42,358 bases of DNA. It comes from a virus (taxonomy: Duplodnaviria; Caudoviricetes). Position numbers and translations under genes: made by a program. Positions 843 through 14,500 of the stretch are shown one piece after another (position 1 is the first letter of the stretch; every line of letters starts with the position of its first letter). The stretch is from the IMG/VR virus record IMGVR_UViG_3300025655_000079, positions 1-42,358 of that record. The stretch is one strand, 5' to 3'. The notes beneath the pieces are model-generated. The model was not told the DNA's origin. It worked only from the letters and a program-made list of their open reading frames with translations, and made no database searches.

Positions 843-944
843 AGCATATTTATTTAGCTATTGCACTTTTAACACTTACTTCGCGTTTAATAACACTAGC
901 AGGAAACCTGCGCCGCGAGGTGGACTATCATAAAAGGAGAAAAA

Positions 945-2921
945 ATGGGGTGGGGAAGCATAGTCAAACCGGAACCAGAGGACGACCGACCATTTTCACC
1001 GAGGATGGTGAATTCTACGGCTCGACCGACTACGATTTTAGGGATAGATTTTGAGACATATTATGGCCAACACTTCTCTCTCACAAAACTCTCGACCACG
1101 CAGTATGTGCGCGATTTACAAAAATCCGAAATTCACGGCGCGGCTGTCTCCGTGGACGGTGGCCAAACTACTTGGTACAGGCCAGATGACTTGGCAGAGT
1201 TTCTCAGTCACTTCGATTGGGATCGAACTGCGGTTCTGGCTCACAACGCTGCTTTCGACGGCTTTATTCTTAGTCAGCACTTTGGGATCACTCCTGCTTA
1301 TTACTACGATTCTATGAGCATGGCTCGTGGCTTACATAGTCACGACATCAGTGCGTCACTAGACGAAGTAGCCAAACATTATCTTCTCGGTGCAAAAACC
1401 CCCGGTATTCTCGCTCAAGCAAAGGGCAAGCAGTGGGATGATATGGACGATAAGTTACAAGCAGCCATGATCTACTACTGCATGAATGATGTAAACATCA
1501 TGTGGAAGATCTTTAACAAGATGCTACCAAGTTATCCACAAGATGAGCTTGATCTTATTAACATTACCATCCAAGCGTTTGCTCGTCCTTTGCTTAACGT
1601 AAATCATAATCTGGTTTACGAAGAGTGGATGCGTGAACGTGACAAGAAAGACGCGCTGATGGATAAGATCATGCACCTTTTACATCAGGAAAATCGTGTT
1701 GCCTTTGAATCAGCCTTGAGTTCGAATCCTCAGTTCGCTAAGATGCTTGAATACTTTGGAGCGGAAGCCCCATTAAAGCCAAGTCCATCTAATCCGGATA
1801 CGATGACTTATGCCTTCGCAAAAAACGATATTGCGTTCCAAAACTTGCAAGTCCATCCTGACGCAAGAGTGCGGGAGCTTGTGGAAGCAAGGCTTTCTGT
1901 CAAGTCCACAATCGGAGAGTCAAGAGCTGAAAGACTTATTCTTCACAGTAAGCCTACTCTGCCCGTCATGCTCAACTATTGTAAGGCACATACAATGCGA
2001 TGGACGGGTGGAGACAAGATTAACCCTCAGAACTTCCCCTCCTCGCGTACAGACTCGCGGATCAGGGAATCACTGATACCACCAGAAGGCTATAAGATAG
2101 TCGTAATCGACTCATCTCAGATTGAGGATCGAATGAATGCTTGGGTCTCAGGACAAAGTGATGTACTCGAAGCGTATCGAGCTAACCTCGACAACTACAA
2201 ACTCATGGCAAGTAAAATTTACGATGTCCCGGTTGACGAAGTTACCAAGTCTCAGCGATTCGTTGGAAAGGTTGCAAGGCTCGGTCTCGGCTACCAGTGC
2301 GGAGCTGCAAAGTTTACTTACATGCTCAGATCAGGCGCTATGGGACCTCCTGTACTCGAAAGCGACCTATCTGAAAAAGACATCCATCTAGCTCACAAAA
2401 AATATCGTGATGCTTCAGAGCATGTTGTGGAAAACTGGAACAGAATGTTTCGAGTTATCCAGAAAATGTATGACAACGAGACATACAACATCACATCTCA
2501 AACATCAGGCGAGGTAATTGCACAGGTTAGAGGGCAGAAGATACTGATGCCAAACGGTCTCTATTTGCATTATCCCGACTTAAAACGGATTCAATATGAT
2601 ACGGCATACGGTGAGGGAGAAGAGTTCTCATACCGTACAGGCAAGCACACCAGAGGCAAGATATATGGTGGGCTACTGGCTGAAAACCTGATCCAATGCC
2701 TTGCCCGTATTGTAGTGGGTGAGCAGATGCTTGAAATAGCGTCTCAATACCCGATTGTGATGATGACGCATGATGAGGTTGTGTACTTGGCTGAAGAAGA
2801 CGAAGCCGAGGAAGCCTACAACTTCGGATTGAGTTGTATGCGTAAAGTACCAGACTGGTGCGAAGGACTACCCATTAATGCCGATGGTGGGTGGGGCGAT
2901 AATTACGGCGAAGTTAAATAG
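945..2921 (+). CDS. polA: DNA polymerase family A with 3'-5' exonuclease domain and no 5'-3' exonuclease
   Basis: ExoI DFETY, ExoII HNAAFD, ExoIII YCMND; motif A DSSQIEDR, motif B RFVGKVARLGLGY, motif C THDEVV. Strong RBS AAAGGAGA before ATG 945. Confidence 0.95.
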   Translation: MGWGSIVKPEPEDDRPFSPRMVNSTARPTTILGIDFETYYGQHFSLTKLSTTQYVRDLQKSEIHGAAVSVDGGQTTWYRPDDLAEFLSHFDWDRTAVLAHNAAFDGFILSQHFGITPAYYYDSMSMARGLHSHDISASLDEVAKHYLLGAKTPGILAQAKGKQWDDMDDKLQAAMIYYCMNDVNIMWKIFNKMLPSYPQDELDLINITIQAFARPLLNVNHNLVYEEWMRERDKKDALMDKIMHLLHQENRVAFESALSSNPQFAKMLEYFGAEAPLKPSPSNPDTMTYAFAKNDIAFQNLQVHPDARVRELVEARLSVKSTIGESRAERLILHSKPTLPVMLNYCKAHTMRWTGGDKINPQNFPSSRTDSRIRESLIPPEGYKIVVIDSSQIEDRMNAWVSGQSDVLEAYRANLDNYKLMASKIYDVPVDEVTKSQRFVGKVARLGLGYQCGAAKFTYMLRSGAMGPPVLESDLSEKDIHLAHKKYRDASEHVVENWNRMFRVIQKMYDNETYNITSQTSGEVIAQVRGQKILMPNGLYLHYPDLKRIQYDTAYGEGEEFSYRTGKHTRGKIYGGLLAENLIQCLARIVVGEQMLEIASQYPIVMMTHDEVVYLAEEDEAEEAYNFGLSCMRKVPDWCEGLPINADGGWGDNYGEVK

Positions 2922-2930
2922 GAGATTCAA

Positions 2931-3335
2931 ATGTTAAATGAAGTGTTGCAAGATGATACACCTCTAGGTACAATGATTGACAAGTTGAGTGACTTGCGTG
3001 TTCAAAAAGCAGGACTGACCTCGCAAATGAATCAACTGAACGAGGAGATTGAGGACTTGGAGTACCGGATTCGGGACACCATGAACGCAATCGGAATCGA
3101 TAAAGCCTCTGGTAAGGATATTAACGTCACTCCAAAGACGGAAGATTATCCAACCTTCGAGGACTCTGAAGAATTTCTTGATTGGGCAAGTTCCACGGGG
3201 AACCTCCACATGCTACAGAAGCGTCTGTCAGCTCCGGCTGTCAGGGAATATCTGTCTCTGCATGATGGTGAATTACCTCCGGGACTTAAGACTTTCGAGA
3301 AATTCACACTATCTGTAACTAAAAGGAGATCATAA
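2931..3335 (+). CDS. Conserved phage replication-region protein with N-terminal coiled coil
   Basis: RBS AGGAG at 2920. Heptad-like N-terminus and C-terminal ELPPGL..F.K..LSV pattern that I recognise from genes preceding phage SSBs. Confidence 0.7.
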   Translation: MLNEVLQDDTPLGTMIDKLSDLRVQKAGLTSQMNQLNEEIEDLEYRIRDTMNAIGIDKASGKDINVTPKTEDYPTFEDSEEFLDWASSTGNLHMLQKRLSAPAVREYLSLHDGELPPGLKTFEKFTLSVTKRRS

Positions 3336-4027
3336 TGGCGAAACAAGAAGTCGCTGAAGTAAACCAAACCTCTAATCTGCCTGCTTCAATTCAGCAGGAA
3401 ATTCTGGAACTGCAAAAGCGTGTGCAGGCTCCAACCGGAAGCCGTATTTCTGTTATGAATAACGGTAAGTTCAAAGTACCGGGTATTGGCGAAGTAGAAG
3501 GTCCGATCGATGTAATCGTCGTTCAGTTCGCTGCTGCCAATTATCTGTACAAAGGCGCATATCGTAAAGATAACCCACAGCCACCTGTGTGTGCCGCTGT
3601 AGGTAAAGGCACTAACGATGACCTTATCCCTGCTGAAAACGCTCCTGAAATCCAAGCAGATGACTGTAAGACCTGCCCAATGAACCAGTTTGGTTCTAAT
3701 GGCAATGGTAAAGCCTGTAAGAACATGAAGATGGTAGCTCTGCTTCCTGCTGATGCCGGTGAGGGTAATGAGTCAGATATTATGACCATCTCTGTGTCAC
3801 CTACGGGTATCAAGGACTTTGACTCCACAATCAGCAAAATTGCAGGTATGGGTCGCTTACCACGCCAGTTGGTAATGTCCATGTACACTAAAGCCGCAGG
3901 TAATTCAGATGCCAAGACCGTAGCGTTTGGTGATCCTCGTCCTCTGACTGATGAGCAGTTTGCGTATGTAAACTCTCGTCTGCAAGACGCTGAAAACATC
4001 CTGTTGGCCCCACCAAAGTTTGACTGA
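3335..4027 (+). CDS. Putative single-stranded DNA-binding/annealing protein, Cys-rich (probable Zn site)
   Basis: PVC...CKTCPMNQFGS..GKACKN pattern. RBS AAAGGAGAT, TAATG coupling, replication-module position. Confidence 0.65.
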   Translation: MAKQEVAEVNQTSNLPASIQQEILELQKRVQAPTGSRISVMNNGKFKVPGIGEVEGPIDVIVVQFAAANYLYKGAYRKDNPQPPVCAAVGKGTNDDLIPAENAPEIQADDCKTCPMNQFGSNGNGKACKNMKMVALLPADAGEGNESDIMTISVSPTGIKDFDSTISKIAGMGRLPRQLVMSMYTKAAGNSDAKTVAFGDPRPLTDEQFAYVNSRLQDAENILLAPPKFD

Positions 4028-4480: not shown

Positions 4481-4868
4481 ACCTGAAGCTAACTATATCA
4501 AGCGTGTACACAATCAGTTAAATAACTCTGTGTACACGCAGGGTATGGGGCTTACCGCCACTAACGGCACACCGGATAACTACTACGAGGGGCATAACGG
4601 TATTCTCTGGGTGGAATATAAATATGTTCAAACTCCTCCTCGTACGTTGAATTTATCCACTTCAACTCACCCTAAACTATCCAAACTTCAACTACGGTGG
4701 CTACGTAGAGCCGCCAAGAATAACGTCAAGACCGCAGTTATTATGGGTACTGATAGTGGGGGATACATTTTCACAGTAGAGGACTTGAAGAAAGACATAG
4801 TCCTTAAAGATGTGGGGATGACGCCTCGACAAGTAGCAGAATGGATAGAAGTTATGGTACTTGGATAA
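4473..4868 (+). CDS. VRR-NUC / PD-(D/E)xK nuclease (Holliday-junction-resolvase-like)
   Basis: E near the N-terminus, GTPD, WVEYK and KLSKLQ..W motifs. Confidence 0.85.
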   Translation: MAKPEANYIKRVHNQLNNSVYTQGMGLTATNGTPDNYYEGHNGILWVEYKYVQTPPRTLNLSTSTHPKLSKLQLRWLRRAAKNNVKTAVIMGTDSGGYIFTVEDLKKDIVLKDVGMTPRQVAEWIEVMVLG

Positions 4869-5116
4869 TGGACAAAACAGACAGACAAACTTACCTTGAT
4901 AACTGGAACTTCCTCAAAAATTCCATGCAGGCCGACAACGTGCAGTTATTGCCCGTTGTGGATAAGGAAGGAAATAAACGTGTTGCGATATGCCACGTAG
5001 AAGGGGAAACCTTTGTTCCAATGGCCATTATGATATGGGACAACCCTTTTGATCTTTTTCAGCCGGATGTAGGTCTTCTGGAAGAAAAAGATCAACCTAA
5101 AATAATCGTTCCTTGA
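4868..5116 (+). CDS. Hypothetical protein, 82 aa (start revised from 4841 to 4868)
   Basis: TAATG overlap with the nuclease stop gives MDKTDRQ...; last gene of the + arm. Confidence 0.7.
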   Translation: MDKTDRQTYLDNWNFLKNSMQADNVQLLPVVDKEGNKRVAICHVEGETFVPMAIMIWDNPFDLFQPDVGLLEEKDQPKIIVP

Positions 5117-5141
5117 CTAAAAAACATATTCCTCATAAACT
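5113..5141 (+). promoter_or_regulatory. Sigma70-type promoter
   Basis: TTGACT (5113-5118), exactly 17 nt spacer, TAAACT (5136-5141). No + strand gene downstream before the terminator. Confidence 0.7.
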
Positions 5142-5147
5142 TCAAAG

Positions 5148-5224
5148 CACATATTGAATCTCCTTTAATGTGTGAATGAAGTGTACTTCTAACCCCGACT
5201 TCTCGCGTTGTCGGGGTTTTTTTT
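5148..5224 (+). ncRNA. Putative small regulatory RNA (about 78 nt) with an anti-Shine-Dalgarno loop
   Basis: Begins 6-7 nt after the -10 box. 11-bp stem 5148-5158/5164-5174 with two G-U pairs and loop UCUCC; mini-hairpin GAAG-TGTA-CTTC at 5178-5189; intrinsic terminator at the 3' end. Confidence 0.55.
5191..5224 (+). terminator. Rho-independent terminator at the convergence of the two arms
   Basis: AACCCCGAC-loop-GTCGGGGTT followed by a T-run to 5224. The minus-strand U-tract is weak. Confidence 0.9.
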
Positions 5225-5225
5225 G

Positions 5226-5267
5226 TCAGCACTTCTTGCCGCCGCCGCCTTTCTTACCTTTTGCCAT
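5226..5267 (-). CDS. Basic micro-peptide MAKGKKGGGGKKC (13 aa); not in the ORF track
   Basis: ATG overlaps the upstream stop (TGATG); GAGGT RBS 8 nt upstream; stop abuts the terminator. Confidence 0.6.
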   Translation of the reverse strand: MAKGKKGGGGKKC

Positions 5268-5926
5268 CAGTATTTACCTCTTATTAGTGGATCAAAATAT
5301 CCTTTAGCGCGTATACCTTCAACTACTTCAGGAATAATTTTGCGGTTTTGCATCTGTTCTTGCATACGACGAATAGTACCTTGGCCGTCGTTAATATCAT
5401 CAACAGCATTGGCTGTTTCTGCTGCGGCTATAGCAACCTGTGCTTCCTTCGCCTTTGAAACTGAATCCGCAGCATTCTTTCCTTTGTTCCACCAGTTGTA
5501 CGCCCTTTCTGCTAATTTTTCCATACGTCGTTGTTTTAGTGCGTCACCCAAAGACTCGCCAACTTTACTTATGGCTTCCGCCTGATGCGCTGCCTTTTCC
5601 ATTCTTTTACTTCTTTCGATAGCACGCTGTTGCTTCTCAAAGCGTTTTTTTCTTCCTGATTTCTTAGCTACCTTCGCTGATAGTAACTCATAATCCTTAG
5701 TTATTTCTGCTGCCTCTTTAGTAGCAGGTCCTCTGCCACGGAAAGTTTTTCTAGCAGTCCTTCTCGCTACATTTTCATACAGATTAGTTTGCGGGGCTCT
5801 TGGTAATATTTTAGGTCCGGGGATAGCCATCAAACCTGTAGTTAGCGCCAAGTCCTGTTGCGCTGCACGCAAATCTCCGCCCTTTACCCGCTGAGCGTAA
5901 TCAAAAAGTAATGTTCCACTTGCCAT
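5267..5926 (-). CDS. Basic, helical hypothetical protein, 219 aa (start revised to ATG 5926)
   Basis: AGGAG RBS before MASGTLL; K/R/A-rich. Confidence 0.75.
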   Translation of the reverse strand: MASGTLLFDYAQRVKGGDLRAAQQDLALTTGLMAIPGPKILPRAPQTNLYENVARRTARKTFRGRGPATKEAAEITKDYELLSAKVAKKSGRKKRFEKQQRAIERSKRMEKAAHQAEAISKVGESLGDALKQRRMEKLAERAYNWWNKGKNAADSVSKAKEAQVAIAAAETANAVDDINDGQGTIRRMQEQMQNRKIIPEVVEGIRAKGYFDPLIRGKY

Positions 5927-5970: not shown

Positions 5971-6393
5971 CTAGCCATTATATTCCCCGGTTTTCATAAT
6001 TTCAGACAGCTCAACAGCTCTATTGCCTACTTGGTCTGCCCATTTACTGTCTAACATTTCCAGTGCAGCTTGCTCGTAATCCCTTGAGGATATAGCAGCC
6101 CACATCTTCTTGAATCGGCTAATTCCAACTAACCCAAGATTAAATACCATATTAACGAGGACATAGTAACGATTGCTATCAAGCTCATGAACGATGGGAA
6201 AATGAGTTCCCAAGTCTCTAGCAGCCTTATCCACGTCATTCCGCATAAGAAGCATTGCTTCATCTAAACTAATCCCGTTTGAGTCTAAATTCCTACCCAC
6301 ACCAATTGTGTTAAATCCTTCCGAACACTTGTACAGGCTCAGTCGCACACCCTCATGGCGCATTAACATATTTTCAAAGTCGTCGCTCGTCAT
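5971..6393 (-). CDS. Endolysin, T4-lysozyme-like muramidase (GH24), 140 aa
   Basis: HEG.RL..YKC..G..TIGVG (E-x8-C-x5-T triad), NMVFNLG, MLDSKWA.QV..RA..L. ATGA coupling at 6390-6393. Confidence 0.92.
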   Translation of the reverse strand: MTSDDFENMLMRHEGVRLSLYKCSEGFNTIGVGRNLDSNGISLDEAMLLMRNDVDKAARDLGTHFPIVHELDSNRYYVLVNMVFNLGLVGISRFKKMWAAISSRDYEQAALEMLDSKWADQVGNRAVELSEIMKTGEYNG

Positions 6394-11500: not shown

Positions 11501-14500
11501 TGAACTTCAGGCGGTTTAGATCCAAACGCTCTAGTAAGGTAGTACCTTATAAAAAACCCATACTGTACTGAAGTATTTGTTCCTGAATTATTTCGTAATG
11601 GAAGCAAGTCAACGTAAGGATATGAATAGTTTGTAGTACCTACTTGGTTCCATTTGTATTGGTACATTGGGCGTAAATTGGTTTTATTATTAACACCGTC
11701 AATTTTCCATACAATGTCACCACTATACATTTGGTTTGCCGCGTCAAGATACACGTAATCCGACAACGTTAATCCTATTACGGGACTTACGTACGGAACA
11801 TTATTAAATGTAGGTTCTGCATACCATCCTGCTTCACGGGTTAAACCGTTAGTAACACTACTCGTAAGCCATGCAAATGATCCATAAGAAGCCCCGGAAT
11901 ACGGTTGTATATAATCTGCGGACCAGATTAACGGATACCCAACATCATCTTGATGATATTGTGTGTTCCACACGATTGCATTATTAGAATCTGAAGTTAA
12001 GTAACCGTTTGCATCAGTACCGCAATCGAGAGGTATAAGATTTGTCGTTCGGTAGTTATTAGCCACAAAACCAAGTAAAGAATGATTATCTAAATAAAAA
12101 TGTATAATCGACCCAGCAACATCTTCATGACAATGAATAATGTACGTTAATTCTACTTCTTCGCCCGGAGCAATTGGGTCCATAGGGCGATATACAGGAA
12201 TATTTATACCATCACTTACATAGTTTTCCACATACAAAGGAGACGTTCCAGTTCCTTTGGTTTTATTTGCGAATAAGACCCTGTCAAAAAAGTCTGGGCG
12301 TCCACTCTCACTGTTTGGGTTTACTACTACCATTGCGTGCGGCCAAAGATAATCACCACTGCTATAAGATCGATGGCAGCAAAATACGAGTTTGTTTTTG
12401 GAAGAACCTAAACCGCGGAATACAATATTATTGTCTACATCTGGGTCAGACGCATCGTTATTAGATAGGTCTTCTGATACAATTTTAAGAGTGTCCCAAC
12501 GAAGGGTAGCGGACAAATTACTTACGCTAGTGTTAGACACTACACGGACAGTAGCCATCGCTAAGAGTTCGCCATCTTCAGAATAAGTAACACTTGCTAC
12601 GGAGAAATTGTTCCATGTAGATTTGTTCCATCCAGTACCGCCGTTATTATAAACACGTACTTGATGGTCATATACCCCTTGATTGTCAGTAGCAACCTCG
12701 TGATGCGCTCCAAATAAAACAATAGGGATTGAAGTACCTTCAGGAAAAGTTACATCATTATATGTAATAACGGTTTTATGTATAGAAGCATAAAGCGTTA
12801 TTCCTGCAATAGCGGTTGCAGTAGATTTCGCCTTGTTTTTATAAAGAATAAATCCCGCAGAAGGTACATATTTAGATGTAGCTGTAAAATCGTCTTTAAT
12901 GAAGTACCAAGTACTATCATTAGGACAACCAAAAGCATAGTATTGATTGCCGCTTTCATCCTCTACAAAAACTCCATCCTGCTTACCTTCAGTGTCAGTA
13001 GAACCCAAAATACATGCTGTTTCAAAAGTACCCCCTGTCGTAGTACTCCAAGATGATCCATAATCATCAGAAATCCAAACAACATCGACATTCACATCTT
13101 CCTTAAATGCGACAATGTAACTTCCATTATTAAATCCAATTACAAGCCGTATATATGTACTCGTACCGGGCAGCCCACTATCTATGTTTACACGGGTTCC
13201 TCCGATATTATTAACAGTACCAGTAACGTCGCAATCAGCCCTGTATCCCGGAGTCGATATATACCCAAAACCAGTCATTAGGTTAGCGGTCGTAAATGTG
13301 TAAAACTCTAATTCACCTGTAGCAAAGGTAGCAGCGGCTACCCAGTCACCATTAGGTAAAAGATTTATACCTGCATGTGCAGGGTCTCCTGCTGATGGGT
13401 TATTAGGATTACAAAACTTTAGCTGTATTGCCCCTAAGTAGGTTTCAGTAGTTTTGTTCCATAAAACAAAATGAAGTCCAATACGAGCTATAACATGATC
13501 AGCATCAACGTCTACTACGCTTTGAGCCCCGTCTCGCTTAGCGAGAAAAATCAACCTAGCTTCTATGTCGTTATAATTAGATGACGGAAGCCTGTAAAAA
13601 TACGATCCTGTATAACCGTATCCGTTTAATGAAGAAACTAAGTTATCCTGTCCATCGCTCCATGTAGATAAGGATATAGGAGTGAATACACCGCTATTTT
13701 CGCGTACAGCTTTTAACTGCATAGCTAAGTTTGGATACGTTTGCGTATTTGTACCCGGATTGGAGACTACAAACTTAACAGCATAGTTTTTATTTGCTTC
13801 TATGGGATAAATATTTTGATCTGTAGCGCCTGTTATAGGCGCTTCTGTAATAGATAAAAATGGATTACTTGTGATCTCGACAACCGATGCGTGAGTGATT
13901 TCGAGATATTCTAACGTGTTATTGTAGTCACCTGTCGCTTGTAAAAGAGCATCGTCAAGAGTACTTATAGTAATTGCGCCAGATATATCTACACCAAAAG
14001 GAGCGCAGGTAAGGGAGCTTTCGCAATCAAGTTGCGTAGCCCCTATAATAGTAGGATCACCTTTACCGTAAAACTCTATGTTTTCATACCAGTCTCTATG
14101 AGAACGATAACTTTCAGAAGTTGATCGCAACGGTTCTGTGTAAGTCCAGCCATACGAGTTTAACGTATAAGTGGTATCGGGGGCCATTATGCCCGTATAA
14201 TGTTCTGCAAAAGTAAAAGATTCTGGCACATAGGCCGACATATCTCTAGGTGTGCCAGAAAATAACCCAAACCCTGTTTCAGAATCAATACACCTATAAG
14301 TAAAGTCAATAGTTTTAGCTTCTAGATCAAACTCAATAACAAGCTCTAACCCGAACTGTCCAGCACTTATATAGTGCAAATTAGAAGTAAAAGCAGAAGT
14401 TCCTTGGGGCTCTATATACGAGGTAAAGATCATAGTGCCATTGACACACCAGTAGACCTGCACTCGTATTCTGCTCGAATATACATAAGGCCTAAACGTA

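Follow-up and report, generated by a model that had tools for sequence, protein, structure and literature searches.

A predicted small RNA at the early/late junction of a phage genome, with a loop complementary to the ribosome binding sites of the phage's own replication genes

How phages that depend on host RNA polymerase shut off their early and replication genes is poorly mapped, and, according to the portion of a review cited here, few phage small RNAs have known targets (PMC12197685). The locus described here raises the question of whether a phage might silence its own replication module with a short RNA made where its early genes end. The DNA analyzed is a 42-kb fragment of 42,358 nucleotides (the window) from an uncultured phage, with early and late arms that converge (Table 1), and an earlier note on it had proposed that an RNA from the junction silences the replication module. 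A transcribed RNA unit at this early/late junction is, in our judgment, very likely. That the 5' loop of the RNA, which would be about 78 nt long, blocks ribosome loading on the phage's own tagged replication genes is a tentative reading of the sequence, plausible though short of probable. The tag, the ranking of gene 2931 and the conservation of the unit speak for this proposal; the stem and loop that are not conserved, and the lack of covariation, speak against it.

Judged by its polymerase, the phage is nearest among isolates to the Pseudomonas phages KPP25 and phiR18 (about 34%), whose gene order is alike, and its relatives point to a proteobacterial host; blastn of the window phage against isolated phages gave a best E of about 1. 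Fourteen further early genes upstream were taken from L005, a near-identical copy (99.8% identity to the window over the overlap, measured on L001, a shorter version of L005), and the earliest genes are absent from the records of both the window phage and L006, the second species compared below. The record of the window phage is about 58% complete, and the left ends of both genomes are missing. One early product had been labeled SSB by the earlier note. We write SSB-like: its best fold hits are indeed T4 and RB69 gp32, at a weak E of 0.017-0.018, but no Pfam family matches. Relatives of this protein at 68% and 55% are closer than the L006 protein, at 41%, and ten proteins resemble the product of the last early gene.

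Other features of these genomes merit record. The final ORF of the late arm (5226-5267, - strand) is a basic 13-codon ORF (MAKGKKGGGGKKC) with a GAGG Shine-Dalgarno sequence, and it stops at the terminator. A promoter-like site matching 10/12 positions (5977-6005, - strand) lies directly upstream of a late gene at 5926 that encodes a basic protein of 219 aa. The early arm of L005 encodes a DksA/TraR zinc-finger protein (4679-4897), which could shift host promoter choice. An early ubiquitin-like module, with ThiF-family and Mut7-C ubiquitin-like genes, is found in L005 (264-4278) and L006 (628-3480); in between stand what we take to be a JAB-like and a possible E2-like gene, labels that are motif-based and have no Pfam match. 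Both phages have part of the module in common, with DNA that is 90.8% identical, which suggests that they exchanged it recently and share a host.

The predicted transcription unit

The promoter lies where the earlier note had placed it (TTGACT at 5113-5118, a 17-nt spacer and TAAACT at 5136-5141, + strand). With 9/12 matches it is unremarkable alone, such sites occurring 13 times in 10 kb and 16.7 times in shuffles, and it carries weight because it is conserved in L006. The RNA predicted from it doubles as the 3' end of the early operon mRNA; its sequence is identical in L005 and has one extra U in L002. The + strand of the unit folds at -28.4 kcal/mol (z -5.75; 0/200 shuffles). Its 5' stem, as had been claimed, has 11 pairs at 5148-5174, including G-U pairs at 5152/5170 and 5156/5166, and is complete on the + strand only, the - strand retaining 5 pairs. 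The loop UCUCC at 5159-5163 and the terminator at 5191-5218, with a U-run up to 5224, are likewise as described. The loop is unpaired in the ensemble, and opening its 7-mer costs 1.1 kcal/mol. A small hairpin at 5178-5189 had been overlooked, as had the conserved core and the Shine-Dalgarno sequence with ATG on the opposite strand of the arm, which opens the 11-codon ORF (5152-5117, - strand). The statement that the + strand lacks an ORF is right in that none fits within the unit, but a 43-codon ATG ORF from 5176 crosses the terminator.

Table 1. Features of the window and of its predicted RNA unit
Feature	Position	Strand	Remark
Early arm: helicase, family A polymerase, small genes		+	
Late arm: capsid, large virion proteins, tail and lysis genes		-	
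Polymerase ribosome binding site, predicted target	933..940	+	8 bp; sequence match
Gene 2931 (DUF7307, Pam3 gp33-like), RBS/start	2920..2933	+	best predicted target
Predicted target with two sites, 5' of the SSB-like gene	3302..3337	+	3302-3309 pairs with core, 3322-3330 with loop
Last early gene, 82 aa	4868..5116	+	synteny anchor to L006, 42% identity
Predicted host RNA polymerase promoter	5113..5141	+	-35 box overlaps stop codon of last early gene
11-codon ORF with AAAGGAG Shine-Dalgarno sequence	5117..5152	-	opposite strand of stem arm; absent in L006
Predicted small RNA, ~78 nt	5147..5224	+	start inferred from -10 spacing
5' hairpin, 11 bp	5148..5174	+	lineage-specific
Putative anti-RBS toehold, loop UCUCC and flanks	5158..5165	+	complement of AGGAGAU and AAGGAGA
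Conserved core AUGUGUGA..AAGU..CUU	5168..5190	+	kept in both phages
Intrinsic terminator	5191..5224	+	strong on +; U-tail weak on -

The loop and the early-gene tag

The matches between the loop arm and three early ribosome binding sites reported by the earlier note are exact (2920-2930, 11 nt; 3322-3330; 933-940). A match of 11 nt is unremarkable per se; the polymerase gene contains another, at 2588. What sets the early genes apart is the extension of their Shine-Dalgarno sequence. AGGAGAT is found at 5 of 22 early starts and at 0 of 32 late starts (Fisher 0.008), and at 5 of the 8 early AGGAG starts compared with 38 of 488 in other phages (p 1.3e-4). Either of the two 7-mers complementary to the loop region occurs at 7/8 early AGGAG starts and 126/488 elsewhere (p 4.7e-4; late starts 0/4), so that seven of the eight pair at least 7 contiguous bases with it. 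The control starts are partly redundant and come mostly from GC-richer phages; their AT-rich subset has the same rate (17/65). Such a concentration is rare, a single extension having reached 60% in two of 54 relative loci, both times the commonest type, and AGGAGAT starts never exceeding two per locus there. Helicase, polymerase, gene 2931 and the SSB-like gene all bear the tag (AGGAGAU or AAGGAGA). Within this phage, the anti-RBS match surpasses a plain Shine-Dalgarno match.

By raw duplex energy across 41 starts, gene 2931 (-20.5), the SSB-like gene (-16.9) and the polymerase (-16.3) come out on top. The earlier note expected 2931 to outrank AGGAG-containing controls, and it does so: 6/488 equal it by raw duplex, about 10% for the best of 9 starts, with an 11-base match in 1 control, and 0/66 are as good once accessibility is included. 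With accessibility, 2931 is first of 54 starts (-9.3), the helicase second (-7.8), the polymerase fourth and the SSB-like gene sixth; the third-ranked start belongs to a late gene and pairs with a different part of the RNA. Control starts do as well in 0/165 cases for 2931, 2/165 for the helicase, 8/165 for the polymerase and 13/165 for the SSB-like gene, and the predicted net energies are modest (-9.3 to -5 kcal/mol). With a wider span per start the SSB-like gene ranks first through its two sites, a score reached by 1/165 controls and near chance for the best of 54; the 8-mer at 3302-3309 is the sole other copy of the core 8-mer in the window.

It is established that antisense RNAs can block ribosome binding sites by pairing that begins at a loop. 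We envisage that host RNA polymerase would transcribe the unit, that the exposed loop would nucleate on AGGAGA(U) leaders, and that the weak AU/GU stem would then unzip. Pairing would comprise 11 bp at 2931, with an extension across the AUG, and two sites at the SSB-like gene. Ribosome loading on the helicase, polymerase, 2931 and SSB-like genes would drop, repressing them. As the junction enters the cell and the genome multiplies the RNA level would climb, and its purpose may be a delayed negative feedback. Action in cis is also conceivable, because the RNA is at the same time the 3' end of the early mRNA.

A second phage and the competing readings

L006, the sole other species close enough for comparison and, like the window phage, podovirus-like, has an equivalent unit at the orthologous early-arm junction, and 2,869 bases of early DNA are common to it and the window phage at 90.8%. 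Its promoter (TTGACA-17-TAAACT, at 11878) has the stop codon in the -10 box rather than, as in the window, the -35 box; because the stop codon sits in different promoter boxes, the shared promoter is not due to coding. The exact pattern TTGAC-N-TAAACT is absent from both strands of 3.51 Mb of other loci, and the distance from promoter to terminator is 43-49 nt in both phages. The L006 junction further comprises a 5' hairpin, the core AUGUGUGA-U-AAGU and a terminator stem with a C-G to G-C swap, and a model built from the window only detects its core and terminator (31.4 bits, E 9e-5). The 5' hairpin itself is different, with 9 bp and the loop UCGC; on the modeled start, transcription in L006 may begin inside it, and the full 9-bp stem would perhaps form on read-through early mRNA only.

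The earlier note had looked to conservation of promoter, stem and loop, and to covariation of the RNA with the 2931 ribosome binding site. Promoter and terminator are kept in L006, but the stem and loop are not, and no such covariation is seen there. L006 lacks a UCUCCU loop, AGGAG is absent at its helicase, polymerase, 2931 and SSB-like starts, and this one relative offers no compensatory pair of loop and target. Two of its three counted AGGAG starts do bear a matching 7-mer, one of them in DNA common to the window phage. Its RNA has no outstanding self-target, the best (-7.5) being equalled by 12/165 controls. A match of 8 nt between the L006 loop and its gene 10290 was considered and set aside: it is not kept in the window, where the ortholog ranks last of 41. 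Two further observations concern L006. Its helicase and polymerase starts (before 5357 and 6905) both have AGGAAGCA, and an open stretch 5' of its terminator can pair with the polymerase start over 8 bases, at an energy not above controls.

Loop and tag are therefore co-present in the window phage and co-absent at the four replication genes of L006, a single contrast, and this joint presence and absence fits co-evolution of the two. The loop resembles a module that one lineage has acquired or shed on an RNA of older origin, whose conserved core probably has a target of its own. The two-phage comparison suggests that targeting modules turn over on such RNAs while the core persists.

Viral, metagenome (32/64 parts) and genome scans yielded no third member, just near-identical copies of the window phage and L006. 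Model R2 found just the known copies in 55 pattern loci and one match, at E 0.11, in 100 loci of distant relatives. A search for a host homologue in 151 genomes gave 2 weak matches, both plain terminators. Elsewhere in the family, a hairpin with an AUCCU loop lies just 5' of the early-arm terminator in another branch (L007, 16580-16650; L155, near 11850). The junctions of L075-L083, L036, L039 and L058 are long, AT-rich and gene-free, with conserved short repeats and an origin-like appearance.

It is possible, though unlikely, that the RNA works through its conserved core, as an antisense to tRNA-Val(CAC) of the host, and that the anti-RBS loop is secondary. The core is the part that both phages keep. 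Of 26 viral matches to its pattern, 8 are cyanophage-type units running from promoter to terminator; their head equals the core at 14/15 bases, 11 of these forced by the search pattern. Among the 36 and 31 tRNAs surveyed (from 45 and 43 gene matches), tRNA-Val(CAC) ranks 3/36 and 2/31 for the window core and 2/36 and 2/31 for the L006 core, and both meet it in the same register, over the anticodon loop and D-stem. Of 149 usable genomes from the class sampled, two unpublished ones being left out, 51 have this tRNA; most carry the same common arm, against which the window core has two mismatches. The arm of a proteobacterial tRNA-Val(CAC), in L270, pairs over 15+5 bp (-29.3), but it comes from 1/401 genomes and was chosen by a pattern derived from the core.

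Shuffling weakens this case. When the 8-base head is held fixed, shuffled tails do as well on the common tRNA in 296-325/3000 trials for the window and 369-422/3000 for L006 (~10-14%), compared with 4-5/3000 for the cyanophage control, whose head ranks tRNA-Val(CAC) first in two tRNA sets (0/100 shuffles); with one tRNA variant the figure for the window core is 1%. The best-tRNA scores are attained by 7-37/100 shuffles. Moreover, the first half of the core is locked in the 5' stem of the window RNA and open in L006 (opening cost 9.6 vs 0.3-2.8 kcal/mol), and GTG codons are not avoided, late genes having 60 GTG and 61 GTC. Pairing of the core with tRNA-Val(CAC), in both phages and in register, is thus not significantly better than expected. 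The cyanophage-type RNA itself, of ~55 nt, has no Rfam match and is found in L177, L181, L182, L184, L185, L189, L190 and L192, near 1500. A role of the core as a Yfr1 sponge was rejected, as it is without the GGAG of the Yfr2 motif in the parts of two papers used for the motif (PMC2518516, PMC6778093) and the relatives indicate a proteobacterial host.

Alternatively, and this we consider quite unlikely, the RNA could be a general CU-rich anti-Shine-Dalgarno RNA directed at many host mRNAs, its match to phage genes a by-product of their strong Shine-Dalgarno sequences. Its anatomy is that of the RF02278 and anti-hemB RNAs discussed below, which give sub-threshold matches in both phages (18.8-24.5 bits), and L006 has a CCUC tract at the edge of its stem and loop. 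That tract is partly paired, however, the early-only tag is left unexplained, and an RNA of this kind would strike the phage's own strongest genes.

Very unlikely, to our mind, is that there is no regulatory RNA at all, and that the locus combines a terminator and a stabilizing 3'-UTR hairpin with a promoter countering late read-through, the RBS match being due to chance. The spacer between -10 box and terminator has a weak likeness alone (483/5000 shuffles), and on the - strand the terminator has a weak tail. In distant relatives, KPP25 included, the early arm ends in plain terminators; the KPP25 junction has two separate ones, and a comparable unit was not seen there by eye. Against this stand the exact promoter kept 43-49 nt from the terminator in both phages, the core together with the left terminator arm (4/5000 shuffles) and the tag statistics.

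In the window RNA the stem sequesters the head of the core, which would be released once the loop pairs with a ribosome binding site. This raises the idea of a two-module switch, in which loop-RBS pairing silences the replication genes and unzips the stem, and the freed core goes on to bind host tRNA-Val(CAC) at its anticodon arm. We hold this to be highly improbable; if true, it would couple replication-gene shut-off to host decoding and extend anti-tRNA RNAs beyond cyanophages to a proteobacterial phage.

Least probable of all is a cis-antisense RNA of the sar/OOP type silencing the late-strand ORF of 11 codons, whose Shine-Dalgarno sequence and ATG it covers exactly: the ORF has canonical 7-nt spacing to its ATG at 5152 (-) and contains the promoter, and L179 has such a layout against a Rha/antirepressor gene, but L006 is without the ORF and the Shine-Dalgarno spacing, the ORF lies beyond the late terminator, and the G-U pairs favor the + strand fold. 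The L179 unit (1440-1560, on a lambdoid contig) is a sar-like promoter-hairpin-core-terminator arrangement antisense to the ribosome binding site of the Rha/antirepressor gene; its score with model R2 is 33.7 bits, but it had been selected by pattern.

Comparison with known systems

The preferred reading, an RNA whose loop silences the phage's own replication genes, can be set beside several known systems. Rfam at gathering score gave 0 matches in the window. The betaproteobacterial 'toxic' sRNAs (RF02278) and anti-hemB (RF02837) are described, in the part of the source used here, as short double-hairpin RNAs with an unpaired CU-rich anti-RBS tract and an intrinsic terminator (PMC5688073). The window RNA (the L006 RNA aside) resembles them in its two hairpins, its unpaired loop complementary to GGAGA and its terminator; it differs in having one CU tract, not two, in being phage-encoded and in matching its own early-gene tag. 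Scores stay below the cut-offs of the two families (window 18.8 and 22.0, L006 22.1 and 24.5 bits, vs 50 and 49.5). The ErsA/Pseudomon-1 family (RF01719; PMC5819304, in part) was compared by model: the CUCCU, GUGU and terminator of the window weakly resemble the consensus, at 17.4 bits vs 50, the family is missing among the 18 matches listed for L006, and the model scores at a similar level in 12/14 control genomes.

Among phage RNAs, sar is one that overlaps its target site. P22 sar and lambda OOP are phage antisense RNAs, and sar pairing blocks translation initiation of a phage gene, as the relevant portion of the review has it (PMC12197685). The window RNA is alike in being a phage RNA of ~70-80 nt; its predicted targets, however, are replication genes 1.8-6 kb off, with 7-11 bases in common, and what lies opposite it is the short ORF that L006 does not keep. 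The antisense RNA C4 of P1, in the part of the source cited, is a phage RNA that uses a separate binding site to regulate one of the phage's genes (PMC8201110). The window loop is likewise complementary to separate sites before phage genes beyond chance (the 7/8 vs 126/488 above), but its predicted targets are not an antirepressor, and the C4 model leaves the window RNA unmatched at E up to 10. Lambda PreS and VP882 VpdS are trans-acting sRNAs, 50-90 nt long, with links to phage replication, again as summarized in part of that review (PMC12197685); both act via Hfq, and PreS on host dnaN.

We found no literature on a phage early-gene anti-Shine-Dalgarno RNA; most subscription papers lie outside our coverage, and absence is not implied. 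In summary, the window RNA belongs to no tested Rfam family and, from its sequence, would act like the CU-rich anti-RBS sRNAs and the phage antisense RNAs. If this is true, a single RNA that reads a phage-specific Shine-Dalgarno extension would be a compact, copy-number-sensitive off switch for the replication module.
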